From a virus (taxonomy: Duplodnaviria > Caudoviricetes): 64,000 bases of DNA. The stretch is from IMG/VR virus record IMGVR_UViG_3300028186_000155. The stretch is one strand, 5' to 3'. A program made the position numbers and the translations under genes. How positions within the stretch are numbered: position 1 is the stretch's first letter; each line of letters begins with the position of its first letter. Positions 1 through 35,208 of the stretch are shown here, one piece after another. The notes beneath the pieces are model-generated. The model was given only the letters and a program-made list of their open reading frames with translations. It searched no databases and was not told the DNA's origin.

Positions 1-191
1 TCTACTTGGCAATTGGAGAAAATGCGCAGCACCACACGCCCACGTTTGTTGAAGACTTCCAGCTGCACGCAGGTTGGACTACCCTTCGGCAAATCACCTA
101 TCAGGTTGCCACTGGTTAAGGTGTAGTCGATATTATACGCAGCCATTTTAGTGACCAGCGTGGTTGCCACCATGAAAGGATTTACGTTCAT
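1..191 (-). CDS. hypothetical protein, runs off the window edge
   Basis: ATG at 191, 1 nt after the upstream stop; frame MNVNPFMVATT... open to position 1. Confidence 0.6.
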   Translation of the reverse strand, partial: MNVNPFMVATTLVTKMAAYNIDYTLTSGNLIGDLPKGSPTCVQLEVFNKRGRVVLRIFSNCQV

Positions 192-192
192 T

Positions 193-471
193 TCAATGCA
201 CCTGTATGAATCCGCGATCCAGCAACTTTTTGATCATGAGTTCCATCAAAACTTTTGACGGGTCATCAGGATTGCAGCGCAAGATTTCGACCGTGCCGTT
301 TGCCTTGACGGTCAGGCCAAATTCCGCGTCGGTTTCAGGAATCAAAACCTCGAAGGTGTGCGCCTCTTTGCCTTCGACCGGTTCGATGTTGCAAAAGAAA
401 ACGCCGTATTGATCGGGTATCTGCTCTTGCAGTTGCTCGCACACTGCATGGGTATTCAGTTTGATATCCAT
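193..471 (-). CDS. hypothetical protein (92 aa, MDIKLN...)
   Basis: GGAGA SD before ATG 471; the longer ORF-track start overlaps the Nudix gene. Confidence 0.7.
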   Translation of the reverse strand: MDIKLNTHAVCEQLQEQIPDQYGVFFCNIEPVEGKEAHTFEVLIPETDAEFGLTVKANGTVEILRCNPDDPSKVLMELMIKKLLDRGFIQVH

Positions 472-493
472 ATTTTCTCCTGCCAGAAAGTGC

Positions 494-517
494 AATGGCG
501 CCCAAAAGGACGCCATT
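494..517 (-). promoter_or_regulatory. intergenic stem-loop
   Basis: AATGGCGTCC-TTTT-GGGCGCCATT, 10-bp stem with one G-U, between stop and SD. Confidence 0.55.
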
Positions 518-521
518 TTGA

Positions 522-1043
522 TTATGCAGCTTTCTTGATTTTCTTCGGTTTGATCTTGGCAGGTTTCAGCGCCTTGATCTTTGGCTTGTCTTTCTTCGGC
601 AACTTTTTGATTTCGTCCAGCAGCTTGTGGTGCTCGCGGCTCAGTTTGTCGCGGGCTTCCGGTAGGCTGAACCACTTGCGTTTCCGCATGTGTTTTTCTT
701 GCCAGTCATCGAGTGCCGTATGGAAATCCATCGCGTACATGACGACGTTCTGTTTCATCCCGTCTTTCTTGTACTCAAATTTACCAATTTTCTTGGTAAC
801 GGTTCCGGTGACTCCCGCCTCTTCGAAGCATTCTTTTGCCGCGTTTTCACGGGCATTCAAATGCTTCTCCTGCCCGCCTTTGGTGAAGCCCCACCACGCG
901 CCTTTCTTCAGCTTTTTCACCAGCAAAACTTGGCGAATGCCGTCTTTGTCGCGGTACGGAATACAACCCGATTGTTCGCGGACTTTTTCCTTCTTTTTGG
1001 CCGACTTCGCGGTGGCCAATTGGAGTTCAACCTGCATTTCCAT
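522..1043 (-). CDS. Nudix hydrolase, DIPP/Ap6A-type, with Lys-rich tail
   Basis: Nudix box GGQEKHLNARENAAKECFEEAGV; WQE...RKRKWF. Confidence 0.85.
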   Translation of the reverse strand: MEMQVELQLATAKSAKKKEKVREQSGCIPYRDKDGIRQVLLVKKLKKGAWWGFTKGGQEKHLNARENAAKECFEEAGVTGTVTKKIGKFEYKKDGMKQNVVMYAMDFHTALDDWQEKHMRKRKWFSLPEARDKLSREHHKLLDEIKKLPKKDKPKIKALKPAKIKPKKIKKAA

Positions 1044-1113
1044 ACAGCCCCTTGTTAGTTAATGGTCGCGACCTTAAAGATCGCTCCCTATTAAATTACT
1101 GCCTACAAGGTAT

Positions 1114-1124
1114 GTTTACAGTTT
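1114..1124 (-). promoter_or_regulatory. AAACTGTAAAC motif copy 1 (putative phage promoter)
   Basis: exact 11-mer, essentially intergenic, followed by SD-occluding hairpin. Confidence 0.65.
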
Positions 1125-1303
1125 TAGTGACCGGCTTCACGCATGTCATCCACTGCACGCTGCACAGCTGCGATGAAAGAGTAGTTTTCAGTGTTCCACG
1201 ACCAGAAGTTAGTCATGCCCGGATGTGAAATTGTCCGGGTGCGGAAACAAACCGTGAGTTCGTAGGTTGCCAGCTGGATAACTGCCCATTCGTATTTGCT
1301 CAT
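1124..1303 (-). CDS. 59-aa hypothetical, paralog of 1300..1485 (not in ORF track)
   Basis: MSKYEWAVIQLATYELTVCFRTRTISHPGMTNFWSWNT...; ATGA-coupled. Confidence 0.75.
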   Translation of the reverse strand: MSKYEWAVIQLATYELTVCFRTRTISHPGMTNFWSWNTENYSFIAAVQRAVDDMREAGH

Positions 1304-1485
1304 GTGCGGCGTTCCTCGACGTATGCAACGGCTTCGACCATGGCTTCGATTAGTCCCGCAGTATCAATCGAATTCCACGTCCAATAACGGGTGTGGCCGG
1401 GGCATTTGATGGTGCCCATAGCGAAGTTGATATACATGCCGTATTTCATGGCCTGCGCCAATGCCCAATTCCCATCGTAAATCAT
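1300..1485 (-). CDS. 61-aa hypothetical
   Basis: ATGA-coupled; shares WA..Q...Y.....F...TI..PG....W.WN with neighbour. Confidence 0.75.
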   Translation of the reverse strand: MIYDGNWALAQAMKYGMYINFAMGTIKCPGHTRYWTWNSIDTAGLIEAMVEAVAYVEERRT

Positions 1486-2360
1486 TTATCTTCCTCAACT
1501 GGCTCGCTGAATATGAGGGTGTACCCTGTGTATTCATTGTTAGTCAAATCAAGCAGCGGCATAAAGAACGGCGAATCGCAAACCTGCCAGCTAACCACCT
1601 TCGTGGTTTTGATACCGACAATTCCATGACGCAAAACCATGTCGGCAAAAGCGCTAGGTTTTAGCAGGGTCAGCAGTTCGGTATTGTTGGCAAATGGAAT
1701 GTATTTGCGCAGTGCAAACGACGGGCGTTTCTCTTCCAACAACAGCGGAATTTCCGAAGCGACATTGACGCTCAGGCGCAGGCCGTGGCGCGTGTGGAAC
1801 TCTTCGAAGTCTTCCGGTTCGTCATAGGCGCCCGGCTCGCCTTCCAAACGGTTTTTGTTAGGCTCCAGCCATTTAATCCCGTCAAAATATACCGAAAACA
1901 TCCCATCGGTAAACGTGCTGGTGTCACGGCCAAGGCCAAAGATTTCATGATCACCCAGCATGACCGACGCGCTGTGCGGATACCCTTTCGGATCGAGGAC
2001 CACCTTGGCTTCGGTTTTCACCTGATTCAGAATAACTTGAACGTCGGACAAAAACGTGGCCCACAATTGGTCAAAATTGAGGTTGGTTTCCGCACTCTTG
2101 GTCAGGATTCCGAATAGCGCGCTGGTCGTCATTTCCTCTGGCAGTTCTTTACACCCTTCGACAAACGCGGTACATCGCTCGCGGTTTGCCGGAACTTCCA
2201 ACCACGTAACTTTTACGCCGTTGAGTTCCATGGTCACAGGCGGCAAATAACCTTGCTGTCGTTCATCGTGGGGCCACGGGCTTCTGATGCTGAAGCCGTT
2301 GGCAATCAAACCCTCGATAAGGTTCACCCGGTGCCGCGTTACAATTTGAGTGCTCGACAT
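1482..2360 (-). CDS. hypothetical protein, family A (cf. 8674, 9489)
   Basis: start MSSTQ at TAATG overlap; terminal segments resemble paralogs. Confidence 0.75.
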   Translation of the reverse strand: MSSTQIVTRHRVNLIEGLIANGFSIRSPWPHDERQQGYLPPVTMELNGVKVTWLEVPANRERCTAFVEGCKELPEEMTTSALFGILTKSAETNLNFDQLWATFLSDVQVILNQVKTEAKVVLDPKGYPHSASVMLGDHEIFGLGRDTSTFTDGMFSVYFDGIKWLEPNKNRLEGEPGAYDEPEDFEEFHTRHGLRLSVNVASEIPLLLEEKRPSFALRKYIPFANNTELLTLLKPSAFADMVLRHGIVGIKTTKVVSWQVCDSPFFMPLLDLTNNEYTGYTLIFSEPVEEDK

Positions 2361-2671
2361 TATTTTTGAATCCTTCCGTGGCCATAAGTGCTGTACTGTT
2401 CGAACAAATCGGCGTCCTGTTTCCCACGCGATTTCAAATTCAGTGATTCCGATTCGCCCTCGCAACTCATGCCACTTTTGCCGAAATTGCAGAACCCTGC
2501 GCTGATGGCGCCGCCCGGACTCATGTCGCTGTATCTGTCGCGCAGCATTACGCGCTTCGACGCTTCACACATGTCGGCATGGGTCAGGTATTTCGGGAAC
2601 ATCACAGGGACTTCGAATTCGTCACCCTGTCTGTTGATTGCCTTGAAAACGATGTATTTGAACGCACTCAT
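2360..2671 (-). CDS. small phage protein, family B
   Basis: KY..F...LTHAD...SAGFC...C.GESESL.L.SRG motif shared with 50196 and, more weakly, 12456. Confidence 0.8.
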   Translation of the reverse strand: MSAFKYIVFKAINRQGDEFEVPVMFPKYLTHADMCEASKRVMLRDRYSDMSPGGAISAGFCNFGKSGMSCEGESESLNLKSRGKQDADLFEQYSTYGHGRIQK

Positions 2672-2672
2672 T

Positions 2673-2987
2673 TTAATTGCTGCTCCGTGCTGTGATGCGG
2701 ATGGTTTGGCGTTTCAGGTCAATCAAATTGTCTCGCAGGCTATCGCGCTCGGTGGTCAGCAGGTTGATACGGCGGGTGTGCTGATCCATCGTCTTTTCCA
2801 CGAAATCAATCAGGTAAAGCTGCGCTTCCAATTCGGTGGCGAACGCTACCTGTTTGGTGGCCGTGTTGTTGTTCCATGCACGCCAGCCACCGCCTTCGAA
2901 ATATTGCGGAATGAACATGTCTTTTTCGCTGATGCCGGGGGCTGGTACGCGGGCAAAAACACGGAACGGAAATTCTGGTTTATTCAT
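2673..2987 (-). CDS. hypothetical protein
   Basis: tiles operon; C-terminal coiled coil. Confidence 0.7.
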   Translation of the reverse strand: MNKPEFPFRVFARVPAPGISEKDMFIPQYFEGGGWRAWNNNTATKQVAFATELEAQLYLIDFVEKTMDQHTRRINLLTTERDSLRDNLIDLKRQTIRITARSSN

Positions 2988-3390
2988 CTTTAGAAATACC
3001 TTTCAAGCGGAACACTGCACGACTGCCGTCAGGTTTGGTGCAGACTGTGCGATATGGGTTTTCCTGATCCGCATAGCTAACGTTGCGGAAACCTTCCTGA
3101 ATCCAGCCTTTTTCAAGGCACAGGCGCTGGGCCTCGAAACGTTCGGCCCAAAGCACACGCCGCTCGTAACGATCTTTACCGTTTACTGGTGGTGGAATAT
3201 CGTGCAGGATGAAATTTTCTTCCTCGATACGTTCGCGCTCTTCACGCTTGGCTTTAACCACAGCATCGCGGATTGCAGCGCTCTCGGCACTCTCTGCTTT
3301 TTCCTTGGCCTTCACGCCCTTATCTTGATAGGGATATTTGCCGTCACAACCAGCCAGCAAAACCAGTGCAAACACCACCAAATATTTCAT
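2980..3390 (-). CDS. lipoprotein paralog 3
   Basis: MKYLVVFALVLLAGC lipobox; AQRLC...YRTVC. Confidence 0.8.
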   Translation of the reverse strand: MKYLVVFALVLLAGCDGKYPYQDKGVKAKEKAESAESAAIRDAVVKAKREERERIEEENFILHDIPPPVNGKDRYERRVLWAERFEAQRLCLEKGWIQEGFRNVSYADQENPYRTVCTKPDGSRAVFRLKGISKDE

Positions 3391-3647
3391 TGCTGGCCAT
3401 TCCTTTTCAGGTAGATAACGGTGCCATCTTTCTGGCGACAAACGGCGCGGTAGCTTTCTGGCCCGCCGCTGCGCAGGTAGTTGCTGGTTTCGAACAGCAT
3501 GCCCATACGCTGGCAGATGCCTTGGGCTTCCCATTTCGCATCCCAATTCAGGCGCGTTTCTTTGGATTTATCAACGCCTCGCGAAGGTCGATCAAGGGCA
3601 TCGCAGCCAGTCAGCAACAGTGCGGCAACCACCATCAAATATTTCAT
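3387..3647 (-). CDS. lipoprotein paralog 2
   Basis: MKYLMVVAALLLTGC lipobox; AQGIC...YRAVC. Confidence 0.8.
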   Translation of the reverse strand: MKYLMVVAALLLTGCDALDRPSRGVDKSKETRLNWDAKWEAQGICQRMGMLFETSNYLRSGGPESYRAVCRQKDGTVIYLKRNGQQ

Positions 3648-3955
3648 TCTGCCACCTCGAATTGTTCCACCGGCTGATTTTCAAGCATACAGGTGGCGCG
3701 GGGTTTCATGTCGTCAACGCCCGGCACCAAACCGATGTAAACCATGTCACGATCAGCGCAAATTTTCTGTGCCTTCAGCGTGCGTTCAAACTGGCCCTTG
3801 CGGTATTCTTGACGCTCCGCCACATAGCGTTGGGCTGCTGCAATTCGGTCGGCGCGTTTTTGGTCACGATCTACCATGCTTTGATATTCTTTTTCAGCGC
3901 CCGAATCACAACCAACCAGAACCAGTGCGGCCATCACGGCCATCAGAATTTTCAT
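3644..3955 (-). CDS. lipoprotein paralog 1
   Basis: MKILMAVMAALVLVGC lipobox; AQKIC...RATC. Confidence 0.8.
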   Translation of the reverse strand: MKILMAVMAALVLVGCDSGAEKEYQSMVDRDQKRADRIAAAQRYVAERQEYRKGQFERTLKAQKICADRDMVYIGLVPGVDDMKPRATCMLENQPVEQFEVAE

Positions 3956-3972
3956 TGTACCTAAATCCTTGA

Positions 3973-4015
3973 AGGTGCCCACACCACGCAGGCACCTGTT
4001 TATCGTTTACAGTTT
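3973..4015 (-). promoter_or_regulatory. AAACTGTAAAC motif copy 2 (4005..4015) plus downstream 10-bp hairpin
   Basis: exact 11-mer overlapping the stop; AGGTGCCTGC/GTGGGCACCT stem before SD AAGGA. Confidence 0.65.
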
Positions 4016-4247
4016 ATTTGTCGCGGTAGCGAGCGTCACGGTCACGCACGAAGCAACGCGCACGGCGCCATGCATCTTGCGCCAGTTCACCAATCAACAT
4101 CACGAACACGAACAGGCCCATAAAGAACATGAAAAGCGGGGTCCACCATGCACGCCCGCCCGGTGGATAATGGTCGTTGCGCGTGTCGTACACAAACCAA
4201 AACGCGTAGGCCAACCACGCCCCTACAATCAGCAAAAGGAAAATCAT
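4014..4247 (-). CDS. small Trp-rich membrane protein (2 TM)
   Basis: two hydrophobic segments; resembles 6322..6525. Confidence 0.7.
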   Translation of the reverse strand: MIFLLLIVGAWLAYAFWFVYDTRNDHYPPGGRAWWTPLFMFFMGLFVFVMLIGELAQDAWRRARCFVRDRDARYRDK

Positions 4248-5614
4248 TCGAAATCTCCCATGTCGTCATCGTCATGATCCACATCGTCAATCAAAACGTG
4301 CGGGATGAAACGTTCGTTGCTGGTGCCCAAAACCGGTTCGTCAAATTCACGAATACACAGTGTGGCAGCCGACGCTTCACGCAGCGAACGGTAATCGGTT
4401 GCACGATCCGGGCACATGAACATGCCGACGATGAAACTGTTACGGCCATCGACCTTGTACGGCGCTTTATATTCCTGATAAACCACATCAGAACCGCCGT
4501 AAATTCCATCGGTCGAGAACTGGTGTTCACCGTTGGCGCGATAGATCACGATGTTGTTGGACATGCGACCGATCACAGGCTTTTGCACATACGCATTTTT
4601 GCCCACAAAACGATCCGGTTTCATGTAAGTGCGCAGCACTGGAACCGTCGCATATTTGTCCGCGAAATTCTGATCGTTTTCCATCAGGTAAGTGACGTAG
4701 GCCCAAATGCCTTTGTTGGACGTAAACCAACGCCACGCCGGTTCCATGATAGTGACGTTACGCGCCCAGTTTTCCCACTGCTGATAGGCAATCGGGCAGG
4801 CCTCGACCATTTCTTCCCACGGCACCAGCGCGAAGATAACCGACAACGGCGTGTCGCCGTATTTCCACGGGTTTTCGCGGTCGGTCAGATCGAACTCGAT
4901 ATCCTTGCTCGAAATGAACAGGCAATCGTTTTCCTCGCCCATGATTTGCGCCACGACTTCCGAAGTGGCTTGCACCTCGAAACTTTCGTCGTCAAACACC
5001 ACAGCCGCCGTGCCGGGAATCTCACCCATTTCCGCAAACAGATCGGATGCCAGCGGGAAATAGGAATTCAACTGCAATTCCGAATCGCCGGTCACAGCTA
5101 CGCACACTTCGTTTTGCAACGAAACGGATTCCAGCAGCATGGTCGGGGTATCGCCGTTAAATTCGTAGATACCTTCGATCTTTTCCGTGACTGGGTTCAT
5201 CACGGCGTCAAAGCGACCGTAGATCGACTGGCGCGCCGAACTGTTGTCGCGATAGGTCCATTTTGCGTAGTCGATGAAATACGGGTGCTTGCGCAGGAAA
5301 TCGCAGCCCATATATTCCATGATGGTGCTTTCGGATTCGTTGAACAGGTGGCCCACAGCCTCGACCAGCATTGCGTAAGCGGCTTCAAACGTGAGTTCAA
5401 TATCGCGGCACGAACTCAGGTTGAAATTGTAGACCGGCAGGTTGTGTTTGTTGTTCATGGGGAACGAGAAATAATCGCGAACCGTCTGATAAAATTCTGC
5501 GTCGGCTTCCGCTTCTGGCTTCGGCATTTCGCGCCAGAATGCTTGAGTCCATGGCAGTTCGTTAACCATGAAATCGTTGAGTTCGAAAGATACTTCGTGA
5601 TACGTGCAATGCAT
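4244..5614 (-). CDS. glutathionylspermidine synthase-like ATP-grasp ligase (YgiC/YjfC family)
   Basis: IYGRFD, IYEFNGDTPT.L.ES, PWE, EPAW....SNKG, KPVIGR...N, VYQEY, IRE, RFIPH. Confidence 0.9.
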   Translation of the reverse strand: MHCTYHEVSFELNDFMVNELPWTQAFWREMPKPEAEADAEFYQTVRDYFSFPMNNKHNLPVYNFNLSSCRDIELTFEAAYAMLVEAVGHLFNESESTIMEYMGCDFLRKHPYFIDYAKWTYRDNSSARQSIYGRFDAVMNPVTEKIEGIYEFNGDTPTMLLESVSLQNEVCVAVTGDSELQLNSYFPLASDLFAEMGEIPGTAAVVFDDESFEVQATSEVVAQIMGEENDCLFISSKDIEFDLTDRENPWKYGDTPLSVIFALVPWEEMVEACPIAYQQWENWARNVTIMEPAWRWFTSNKGIWAYVTYLMENDQNFADKYATVPVLRTYMKPDRFVGKNAYVQKPVIGRMSNNIVIYRANGEHQFSTDGIYGGSDVVYQEYKAPYKVDGRNSFIVGMFMCPDRATDYRSLREASAATLCIREFDEPVLGTSNERFIPHVLIDDVDHDDDDMGDFE

Positions 5615-18401: not shown

Positions 18402-19289
18402 TTATTGTGCGCAATCATCTTGATCATCATCGTCGCATTCTTCGAGGTCGTAGCCGTAGCCAGCCTCTGCGAAATAATCCTTGCTGATTTCGTCTTGTTC
18501 GGTCAGTCCGTTGAGGTGATCAACGAACAGTTTGGTCCAGTTTTCGAACTTCACACCCGGATAGGTTTCGTACAGCTTTTGGGCCGCAACTGGCGGAATG
18601 AAATCGACGCCTTTTTCACGATTGCCTACCGTCACTCCGTCTTTCAGACGCAGACGCCACGCGATAGCCAGATGCAGACGGCCTACGTTGTCGCTATTGT
18701 CGAAAATCAGGCCTTCGAAATGCAGGGTTGCCAAATCCGCCAGATCATCCAGCGTGGCAGTCAGCCGTTCTTTCGCCGTGCCTTCTGCCCGGTAGGCGCT
18801 GAATTTTTCACCGTGAACGAAGAACGTCATTTCTTCGAATGCTTCGCGCATGATGTTTTGCAGAGAAGTTTCCAGCAGGTTCGGAATACTGGTATTGCGG
18901 TGTGTTACAGGGTCGCGCAGATAACGCACGTCCACCGCGTCGAGGTGGCCGCCCGGCATGCCCGAACCTTTGCCTTGCAGATCGGATTCGCCGTTGCCTT
19001 CACGTGCACGCATGTAGGCGTTCAGTTCCGGCAGGTAATGCGGCGTACCAGCCTGCTCTACCGTGAAGTAGTTCAGCCATTGCGCGTAATCGCGGTTGCC
19101 TTTGAACGATTCGCCCCAGTGCAAAGATTCGTCAAGGTCTTCGCGCTGGCCAATGATGAACCCGCGACGAACCAAACCGGAGAATTGTTCCCAGTCCACT
19201 TTTACGAAGCCGGTTTGACCCATGCCGAGTTGCGGAATGTCACGCAGAACGGTGCGGCGAATCGCGCCAATGAATTCTGGATATTTCAT
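18402..19289 (-). CDS. Nudix-fold phosphoesterase (YmaB/COG4112-like)
   Basis: Y.R....GES.L.G..S...GGH, REAFEE, D..VG.LH, ENW. Confidence 0.8.
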   Translation of the reverse strand: MKYPEFIGAIRRTVLRDIPQLGMGQTGFVKVDWEQFSGLVRRGFIIGQREDLDESLHWGESFKGNRDYAQWLNYFTVEQAGTPHYLPELNAYMRAREGNGESDLQGKGSGMPGGHLDAVDVRYLRDPVTHRNTSIPNLLETSLQNIMREAFEEMTFFVHGEKFSAYRAEGTAKERLTATLDDLADLATLHFEGLIFDNSDNVGRLHLAIAWRLRLKDGVTVGNREKGVDFIPPVAAQKLYETYPGVKFENWTKLFVDHLNGLTEQDEISKDYFAEAGYGYDLEECDDDDQDDCAQ

Positions 19290-19297
19290 GTTGGTTC

Positions 19298-19353
19298 CTA
19301 GATACAGGGCGGCCCCCTTTGGACCGCTCGCCTGTACCTAGTGTTTACAGTTT
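19298..19353 (-). promoter_or_regulatory. AAACTGTAAAC motif copy 6 (19343..19353) plus SD-occluding hairpin
   Basis: CTAGGTACAGG/CCTGTATCTAG 11-bp stem plus 7-bp inner stem; 3' arm includes the AG of SD AGGA. Confidence 0.7.
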
Positions 19354-34847: not shown

Positions 34848-35208
34848 ATTGAATTCCTTGAAGTTCCTGTAAGAGACGTATGTGGACGGTTTCGAGTCGT
34901 TCGCCACATATATCGTTTACAGTTTTCAGGAAGTCTTGCAATTCATCCAGTACCGTGAGGATTTCCACCGACAGGTCGGACCAGCGTTGATTGCCGCCCA
35001 GCGTCAATTCCAATTCAGGCCTACGTGTTAGGCCGGGGATAGAATGGCGCACGTGAGTTTCGTCAACATCGATTTGAGAAACGGCGAAACTTTCACGCGA
35101 TACGTGCACCTTGTGGCGCAGAACGGCAACGCGGCGGAACAGTTCCTGTGCGTAGGCCTGCCGTTCCATTGGCATCATGTCCTCGATTTCTTTCCGGCTG
35201 TATCTCAC
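34828..35208 (-). CDS. hypothetical protein
   Basis: GTGA-coupled. Confidence 0.65.
   Translation of the reverse strand: MRYSRKEIEDMMPMERQAYAQELFRRVAVLRHKVHVSRESFAVSQIDVDETHVRHSIPGLTRRPELELTLGGNQRWSDLSVEILTVLDELQDFLKTVNDICGERLETVHIRLLQELQGIQYGKAKS
34915..34925 (-). promoter_or_regulatory. AAACTGTAAAC motif copy 7
   Basis: exact 11-mer 67 nt upstream of the HTH gene; shares downstream GATA with copy 2. Confidence 0.55.

Follow-up and report, generated by a model that had tools for sequence, protein, structure and literature searches.

Several genes of bacteriophage T4 (e, soc, 49, and I-TevI) carry hairpins that sequester the translation initiation region (TIR) on early and middle read-through RNA, and they are released by a late promoter inside the hairpin (Uzan and Miller 2010, PMC3014915). 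The hairpin of gene e causes an approximately 100-fold reduction (PMC3014915). Jumbo phages of the Lu11/PaBG group encode their own sigma-like factor (PMC7412058). A preliminary description of the DNA studied here suggested that a T4-like timing switch controls a Nudix hydrolase gene (Nudix 1), in whose leader a motif would abut an arm that pairs with both the Shine-Dalgarno (SD) sequence and the start codon and encloses an inner hairpin. In this study, we analyzed this leader at positions 1041-1124 of the window, the whole stretch of 64,000 nucleotides under analysis. All strings quoted in that description were found on the minus strand at the places given for them, and all leader features below lie on that strand.

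The window corresponds to bases 876-64875, read on the reverse strand, of a 194,917-base IMG/VR virus contig with an estimated completeness of 63%. The nearest named relative of the contig was Pseudomonas phage HRDY3 (313,683 bp), and the related contig L005 was 100% identical to Pseudomonas phage Lu11. Therefore, the source is a jumbo phage of the Lu11/PaBG group. We considered phiKZ-like and T7-like transcription for this phage and set both aside, as the contig gave no match to Rpb2 or T7 RNA polymerase; the T7 result was uninformative, the T7 model being silent in every control genome as well. Pfam searches of the 63%-complete contig for sheath and terminase gave no match, nor did a tblastn search of it with the Lu11 tail sheath. 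Chimallin was rejected as the identity of a 729-aa ORF, for which a PDB sequence search gave no match. Nudix 1 (522-1043, minus strand) encodes 173 aa from its first AUG and matched the Pfam NUDIX model with an E value of 5e-10; its nearest solved relatives were enzymes of the DIPP/NUDT3 type (E 1e-10). Two in-frame starts are candidates, AUG1 (1043-1041) and AUG2 (1037-1035). In alignments, AUG2 corresponds to the start annotated for Lu11 and to the sole possible starts in the relatives L007 and L008. Initiation at AUG1 gives MEMQ..., which resembles the MEM- starts of six tag genes and favors AUG1.

The motif of the preliminary description, here called the class A box (AAACTGTAAAC, 1124-1114, minus strand), begins with A1124, the base on which the stop codon (1126-1124) of an upstream 59-aa ORF ends. 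The word is polarized and over-represented: all 10 copies of CTGTAAAC in the window lay on the minus (coding) strand, and the contig contained 17 exact class A 11-mers following gene direction versus none of the reversed word. More generally, the word CTGTAAA(T/C)A was strand-polarized with the genes and located at gene ends or in intergenic gaps. The same word is annotated in the GenBank record of Lu11 (JQ768459 / NC_017972), where 16-mers starting CTGTAAATA are labelled 'putative middle/late promoter' and precede the genes for DNA polymerase I and DNA polymerase III. Lu11 had 28 copies of ACTGTAAATA and none of a control word. The Lu11 features share with the window box the core CTGTAAA(T/C)A, the strand polarity, and the placement at gene ends and in intergenic gaps. 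They differ in the eighth base, which is C in the window phage and T in Lu11, and Lu11's own class A copy in its Nudix leader is absent from its annotated features. The class A motif is thus already known. In two tandem class A boxes, 35 nt apart, at G000:C1:161275-161360 (minus strand), the second was followed by CATACCTT, 8 bases that also occur in the Nudix 1 arm, but to which the ribosome site of the gene had no match. A further class A box was located just downstream of a 300-aa ORF (G000:C1:153975-154877, minus strand) that matched Sigma70_r2 with 27.8 bits and ECF/SigF models faintly. Its product may be the factor that reads one of the two box classes.

The other class was overlooked in the preliminary description, although it lies inside the proposed loop and is the most conserved element of the leader. 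This class B box (GTAATTTAAT, 1099-1090, minus strand) follows the class A box at a distance of 14 nt and includes an exact match to the class B 11-mer TAATTTAATAG (1098-1088). We aligned the window leader with eight homologues, drawn from HRDY3 and seven viral contigs. Among these nine leaders, the sole block identical in 9/9 was GTAATTTA (1099-1092), which was retained even in the L007 leader, where the class A box is missing. TAATTT was also present in four further metagenomic leader types with protein identity down to 57%, so that class B was found in every homologous Nudix leader recovered. In Lu11, the class B word (G)TAATTTAA(A/T) stands between a terminator and the tail-sheath gene. 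In HRDY3, it precedes both tail-sheath genes and directly follows the head-tail connector gene, and the boxes are often followed by a hairpin and then an SD, as in the sheath-2 leader. Copies in Lu11 and in contig G002 were nearly all intergenic and upstream of genes. In the window's contig, 5/6 copies were intergenic and just upstream of a gene start, at 18-62 nt for the four genes in the call set and approximately 55-61 nt for Nudix 1; the Nudix 1 copy is thus placed like those preceding the tail-sheath genes, a short distance 5' of a gene start. At G000:C1:108925-108960, a plus-strand class A-like box overlaps a minus-strand class B box, back to back between divergent genes. PHROG naming of the four genes behind contig class B boxes was uninformative. 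TAATTTAAW occurred 9 times in HRDY3 versus 7 times for the reversed word; the class B word is not over-represented by count, and the evidence for it is therefore positional. A maximal-order Markov analysis of word over-representation recovered neither box.

From their positions and conservation, we infer that both boxes are promoters, class B being a putative second promoter of the virion-gene type. If so, transcripts would be expected to start 5-8 nt 3' of CTGTAAAT and of TAATTTAA. By analogy with the spacing of T4 late promoters, the class A start would lie at approximately 1107, and T4-like or sigma-70-like spacing would place it at 1105-1109. We also considered a single sigma-70 promoter with class A 'CTGTAA' as the -35 and class B 'TAATTT' as the -10 element. 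This was rejected because the spacing is 17 nt here versus 10-16 nt in the relatives, and because the promoter scan called no sigma-70 site. Literature searches on HRDY3, CTGTAAA, and TAATTTAA returned nothing relevant. As far as these searches reach, the class B box and the leader hairpin described below are new to papers.

The N-terminus MEMQVELQLA of Nudix 1 (1014-1043, minus strand) resembles the start MEM(Q/T/I/M)L(A/S)LA of six genes of the structural arm (G000:C1:123495-130271, minus strand). Seven contig ORFs of at least 60 aa start with MEM, and all belong to this set of six plus Nudix 1. By this resemblance, the Nudix 1 protein may be tagged for loading into heads, in keeping with the putative promoter box of the virion type in its leader. 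The gene product is probably a late enzyme and perhaps loaded into the virion.

Messages are stabilized by 5'-terminal stem-loops, such as that of the E. coli ompA leader, and promoter-early stem-loop cassettes reportedly occur in T4-type phages. The Nudix 1 leader contains a stem-loop at 1094-1059 (minus strand), composed of UUAAU/AUUAA (1094-1090 with 1063-1059), GG/CC (1088-1087 with 1065-1064), and the core GCGAUCU-UUA-AGGUCGC (1084-1068). This is the inner hairpin of the preliminary description (TTAAT..GCGATC-TTTAA-GGTCGC..ATTAA), and it was well supported: it occurred in every predicted fold and showed compensatory changes. In the alignment of nine leaders, 81.5% of cells could pair, versus 31-45% when partners were slid. 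The covariation score was 0.322 versus at most 0.127, none of 500 shuffles reached it, and three pairs carried double changes. In the relatives, this position is likewise occupied by a hairpin, but the sequence differs. The window has GCGAUCU/AGGUCGC, L002 has GCGUUC-UACG-GGGCGC, HRDY3, L003, and L004 have GGGAUGGG(G)/(C)CCCGUUCC, and L006 has GAACGG/CCGUUC. An Rfam scan of window positions 1-5000 gave no covariance-model match at E<=1. An intrinsic terminator was rejected as a reading of the hairpin because the sequence that follows, CAUUAACUAAC, has no U-run; no terminator was called on the minus strand.

In all leaders, 3-8 nt separated the class B box from the start of the hairpin, and with T4-late-like spacing the hairpin would sit at, or a few bases from, the 5' end of class B transcripts. 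It may therefore resemble 5'-terminal stem-loops elsewhere in stabilizing the message. As in the ompA and T4-type cases, a stem-loop lies 3-8 nt past a promoter-like box, and shape rather than sequence is conserved. The box of the window differs in being a phage-specific putative promoter of the virion type, and both the 5' end and the stabilization are hypothetical here.

We then compared the outer helix with the preliminary description, in which CATACCTTGTAG (1114-1103) pairs with CTAACAAG (1058-1051), GGGCT (1050-1046), and GTATG (1045-1041). The 5' arm lies in the variable 14-nt spacer between the boxes. By pair list and pairing probabilities, pairing with the SD region is predicted only for 1110-1105 (CCUUGU) and 1103-1102, and their 3' partner CU.ACAAGG (1058-1050) overlaps the SD sequence AAGGGG (1053-1048), which is identical in six close relatives. 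The four anti-SD pairs had probabilities of 0.94-0.97 in read-through RNAs of 200-300 nt and 0.05-0.29 in shorter RNAs. The anti-AUG pairs CAUAC/GUAUG had probabilities of 0.000-0.008. In a 116-nt RNA, the best structure with all 12 described pairs reached -26.7 kcal/mol versus -29.8 kcal/mol for the minimum free energy, and the shifted 6-bp helix CCUUGU (1110-1105)/ACAAGG (1055-1050) with GG/CU reached -29.3 kcal/mol. The anti-AUG half was outcompeted by a local hairpin, CUGUAU-GGAA-AUGCAG (1047-1032), with 6 bp and a GNRA loop; it contains both in-frame AUGs regardless of where the RNA starts. Thus, the anti-SD half of the described helix was reproduced and the anti-AUG half was not. The second base of the GNRA loop (G/C/A) is the sole variable base in a 40-nt stretch among close relatives. 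It is also the first base of codon 2, which varies as GAA/CAA/AAA in these relatives.

The energy required to open the six SD bases depended on the 5' end. It was 3.1-5.9 kcal/mol for read-through RNAs starting at 1164-1424, 2.1-2.3 kcal/mol for starts at 1124-1144, 5.3-5.6 kcal/mol at 1110-1118, and 1.65-1.95 kcal/mol at 1108 or lower, as computed by folding that is unreliable for RNAs of 200-400 nt and ignores ribosomes and co-transcriptional folding. The value stepped from 5.6 to 1.85 kcal/mol as the 5' end moved from 1110 to 1108. Shuffling the 12-nt arm in the read-through RNA lowered SD opening from 3.8 to 1.8±0.3 kcal/mol. Therefore, the arm acts in the described direction, but by approximately 2 kcal/mol. 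As the preliminary description had expected, the SD was less accessible in the long than in the motif-initiated leader; the closure that it took for silencing was nevertheless average for this phage, as follows.

Among 86 ordinary genes of the contig, SD opening in long transcripts averaged 3.03 kcal/mol, and 45% of the genes had values of at least 3.0 kcal/mol. Therefore, the supposedly silenced read-through state of Nudix 1 (3.0-5.9 kcal/mol) is ordinary. The long-minus-short difference in these genes had a mean of 0.15 kcal/mol (sd 1.42), a 90th percentile of 1.26, and a 95th percentile of 2.06. For Nudix 1 it was 1.3-3.8 kcal/mol, near the 90th-95th percentile, which is high but not outstanding. 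The duplex of arm and TIR was not above chance (-9.4 versus -8.1 for shuffled arms, p=0.27), and the native 62 nt upstream of the class B box did not occlude the TIR beyond its own shuffles (p=0.20). CATACCTT also follows a second class A box in the contig with no match to the TIR of that gene, and the arm may thus be a part of the promoter region. No general complementarity between arm and TIR was found in 15 class A leaders (permutation p=0.21).

These values bear on a timing gate of the T4 type, in which the SD would be hidden on read-through RNA by the arm just after the class A box and transcripts from the gene's own class A promoter (approximately 1107) would be translated. We regard this as a serious but clearly less probable account. 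It would explain the sharp step between 5' ends 1110 and 1108, the effect of shuffling the arm, and the high anti-SD pairing in long RNAs, and it has the T4 precedent (PMC3014915). It fits poorly with the unformed anti-AUG half, the pairing of the AUGs in all transcripts, the average absolute occlusion on read-through RNA, and the window p values of 0.2-0.27 against shuffles. The nearest promoter-like site upstream, at window position 4012, has the class A word as well, and no terminator separates the two. With this site, a timing logic is hard to see: read-through and local transcripts would be of one time class, which leaves no obvious contrast between early and late RNA.

The maximum of SD closure at 5' ends 1118-1110 (5.3-5.6 kcal/mol) raises a different gate, in which class A transcripts start at 1110 or higher and keep the arm, so that translation of middle-period and read-through RNAs would be poor, and late class B transcripts alone are open. 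Ends of the class B type indeed had SD opening of 1.8-1.9 kcal/mol, and the class B box is within the loop, a location shared with the late promoters of T4. Such control would be apt for a protein loaded into heads, given the similarity between the N-terminus MEMQVELQLA and the MEMxLALA tag of the six structural-arm genes. However, the class A start expected from T4-like or sigma-70-like spacing (1105-1109) falls below the step, where RNAs from spacing-placed class A and class B starts were equal in SD accessibility, and SD opening took just 2.1-2.3 kcal/mol at 5' ends 1144-1124. We therefore consider release by class B transcripts very improbable.

The homologous leaders were examined in the same manner. 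The described helix was not conserved column by column: its 3' strand was identical in six relatives, while changes in the 5' strand (CAATCCCTGAGC in HRDY3, ATATACAGTGAG in L003/L004, and TATCCCTTGGG in L006) were uncompensated. Other, differently built arms gave strong occlusion in L004, L006, Lu11, L007, and L008. Read-through RNAs of several relatives were predicted to fold into long irregular rods of 19-30 bp, in which the region of the class A box pairs with the TIR and encloses the class B box and the hairpin. In Lu11 (L015:2425-2515), the predicted partner of the class A box CUGUAAAU was AUUUGCAG, immediately 5' of the AUG. This 19-bp rod joins CGUUA with UGAUG and AGGUGU with AUACCU, its flanking helices cover the AUGs, and opening from SD to AUG required 9.5-10.7 kcal/mol on read-through RNA versus 1.8 kcal/mol from the class A start. 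In L006, UCCCUUG was predicted to pair with CAAGGGG; in L003/L004, GCCCC just upstream of the box with GGGGC; and L008 had a predicted helix of 10-11 bp. Over L004, L006, and Lu11, SD-to-AUG opening was 10.7-15.8 kcal/mol on read-through RNA versus 1.8-8.4 kcal/mol from the predicted class A start.

The SD was more closed on read-through than on class A-initiated RNA in 8/8 class A-bearing homologous leaders. Leader by leader, we compared the native upstream segment with shuffles of itself. The native segment was more occlusive in L004 (p=0.016), L006 (p=0.016), and Lu11 (p=0.049), with p values of 0.066 in L007, 0.082 in L008, 0.20 in both the window and HRDY3, 0.46 in L002, and 0.7-0.85 in L030, L031, and L034. 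Fisher's combined p over ten lineages was 0.004. In 44 ordinary genes, the same test gave p<=0.05 in 2% with a median p of 0.65, and it is therefore conservative. These family-level results suggest that a read-through-specific gate is a real tendency of the Nudix 1 leader across the phage group by these folding models, strong in some lineages and weak in the window phage. For the timing gate, the 8/8 leaders, the three lineages with significant shuffles (p 0.016-0.049), the combined p, and the pairing of the Lu11 class A box itself next to the AUG count in favor; the weak arms in L002 and HRDY3 and the drift of the 5' arm beside an invariant 3' arm count against. The switch put forward in the preliminary description was thus supported in part. 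Its geometry, the effect of the arm, and the occlusion in relatives speak for it; the unformed anti-AUG half, the average closure of the SD, the uncompensated 5' arm, and the same-class box upstream speak against it.

RNase III-type cleavage sites occur in T7 early RNA and in the lambda N leader. The rods of 19-30 bp in the relatives would suit a processing or binding site of this kind, and in many leaders the 3' half of the class B box pairs with a downstream complement, so that the box and its inverted partner ATTAAC might instead be an operator for a phage protein; one copy of the box is separated from an AUG by just 9 nt, an awkward distance if it is a promoter. However, the rod of the window is short and interrupted, and the class B box also occurs with neither partner nor hairpin, directly after terminators and before an SD. 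A site of either type appears marginally less probable still than release by class B transcripts.

Another leader of the same contig provides a precedent for gating. In the Nudix 2 leader (window 19289-19353, minus strand), the class A box is immediately followed by 11 nt that pair with the sequence ending in the SD, with a duplex of -17.2 kcal/mol. SD opening fell from 6.2-6.5 kcal/mol on read-through RNA to 0.3 kcal/mol from the predicted class A start. As modeled, the gate at Nudix 2 is clear and much stronger than that at Nudix 1, and this same-genome case speaks for the timing gate at Nudix 1. A class A leader at window 34850-34925 (minus strand; AAACTGTAAACGATATATGTGG...CCACATACG) likewise showed occlusion of the TIR specific to read-through RNA, with a difference of 5.7 kcal/mol.

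Taken over the whole leader, we consider it slightly more probable than not that the 84 bases are a compound promoter-leader with mild attenuation. Its parts are, in order, the class A box, the variable spacer, the class B box, the conserved hairpin, and a TIR with local structure. The class A box is the Lu11-type 'middle/late' box seen before replication genes, and the class B box, 14 nt downstream, is the one that precedes tail-sheath genes and further virion genes. A small local structure then contains the SD and both AUGs. The spacer between the boxes happens to carry an anti-SD of 6-8 nt, which in the computed folds raises SD opening on read-through RNA by approximately 2 kcal/mol. Transcripts starting at or below 1108 would lack it, and the result in the window phage would be mild attenuation, not silencing. 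Against so weak a gate, we counted that shuffling the arm removes the SD difference and that this difference lies near the 90th-95th percentile. Given the strong occlusion in the relatives, the gate may therefore matter more than credited in this compound promoter-leader.

The mechanism is known from T4, and the Nudix 1 instance is a weak version of it. As in e, soc, 49, and I-TevI, the window box abuts or lies inside a predicted long-range helix with its 3' strand over the SD, and the 5' strand would be missing from transcripts of the gene's own promoter; the predicted versions in Lu11, L004, and L006 are strong. In contrast to the approximately 100-fold effect at T4 e, the window helix has 6-8 bp and contributes approximately 2 kcal/mol. 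Unlike in T4, the AUG lies outside the long-range helix, two promoter boxes are involved, the promoter words are CTGTAAAC and TAATTTAAT rather than TATAAATA, and the nearest upstream promoter-like box is of the same class as the gene's own.

A broader version seems unlikely to us, though less so than the class B and processing readings: in Lu11-like jumbo phages, promoter-gated occlusion would recur at selected accessory genes, including the two Nudix genes and one or more others, with the box or its flank as the anti-TIR strand, and at Nudix 1 the gate and the virion-type promoter would together confine a head-tagged, packaged enzyme to late infection. Lu11 and HRDY3 are cultured phages in which the gate could be examined. 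The gate aside, the leader is a compact map of two putative promoter classes and a conserved hairpin in a group with an unstudied transcription programme. If the gate works, T4's control of translatability by promoter position would have arisen again in an unrelated lineage of giant phages, with other promoter words.
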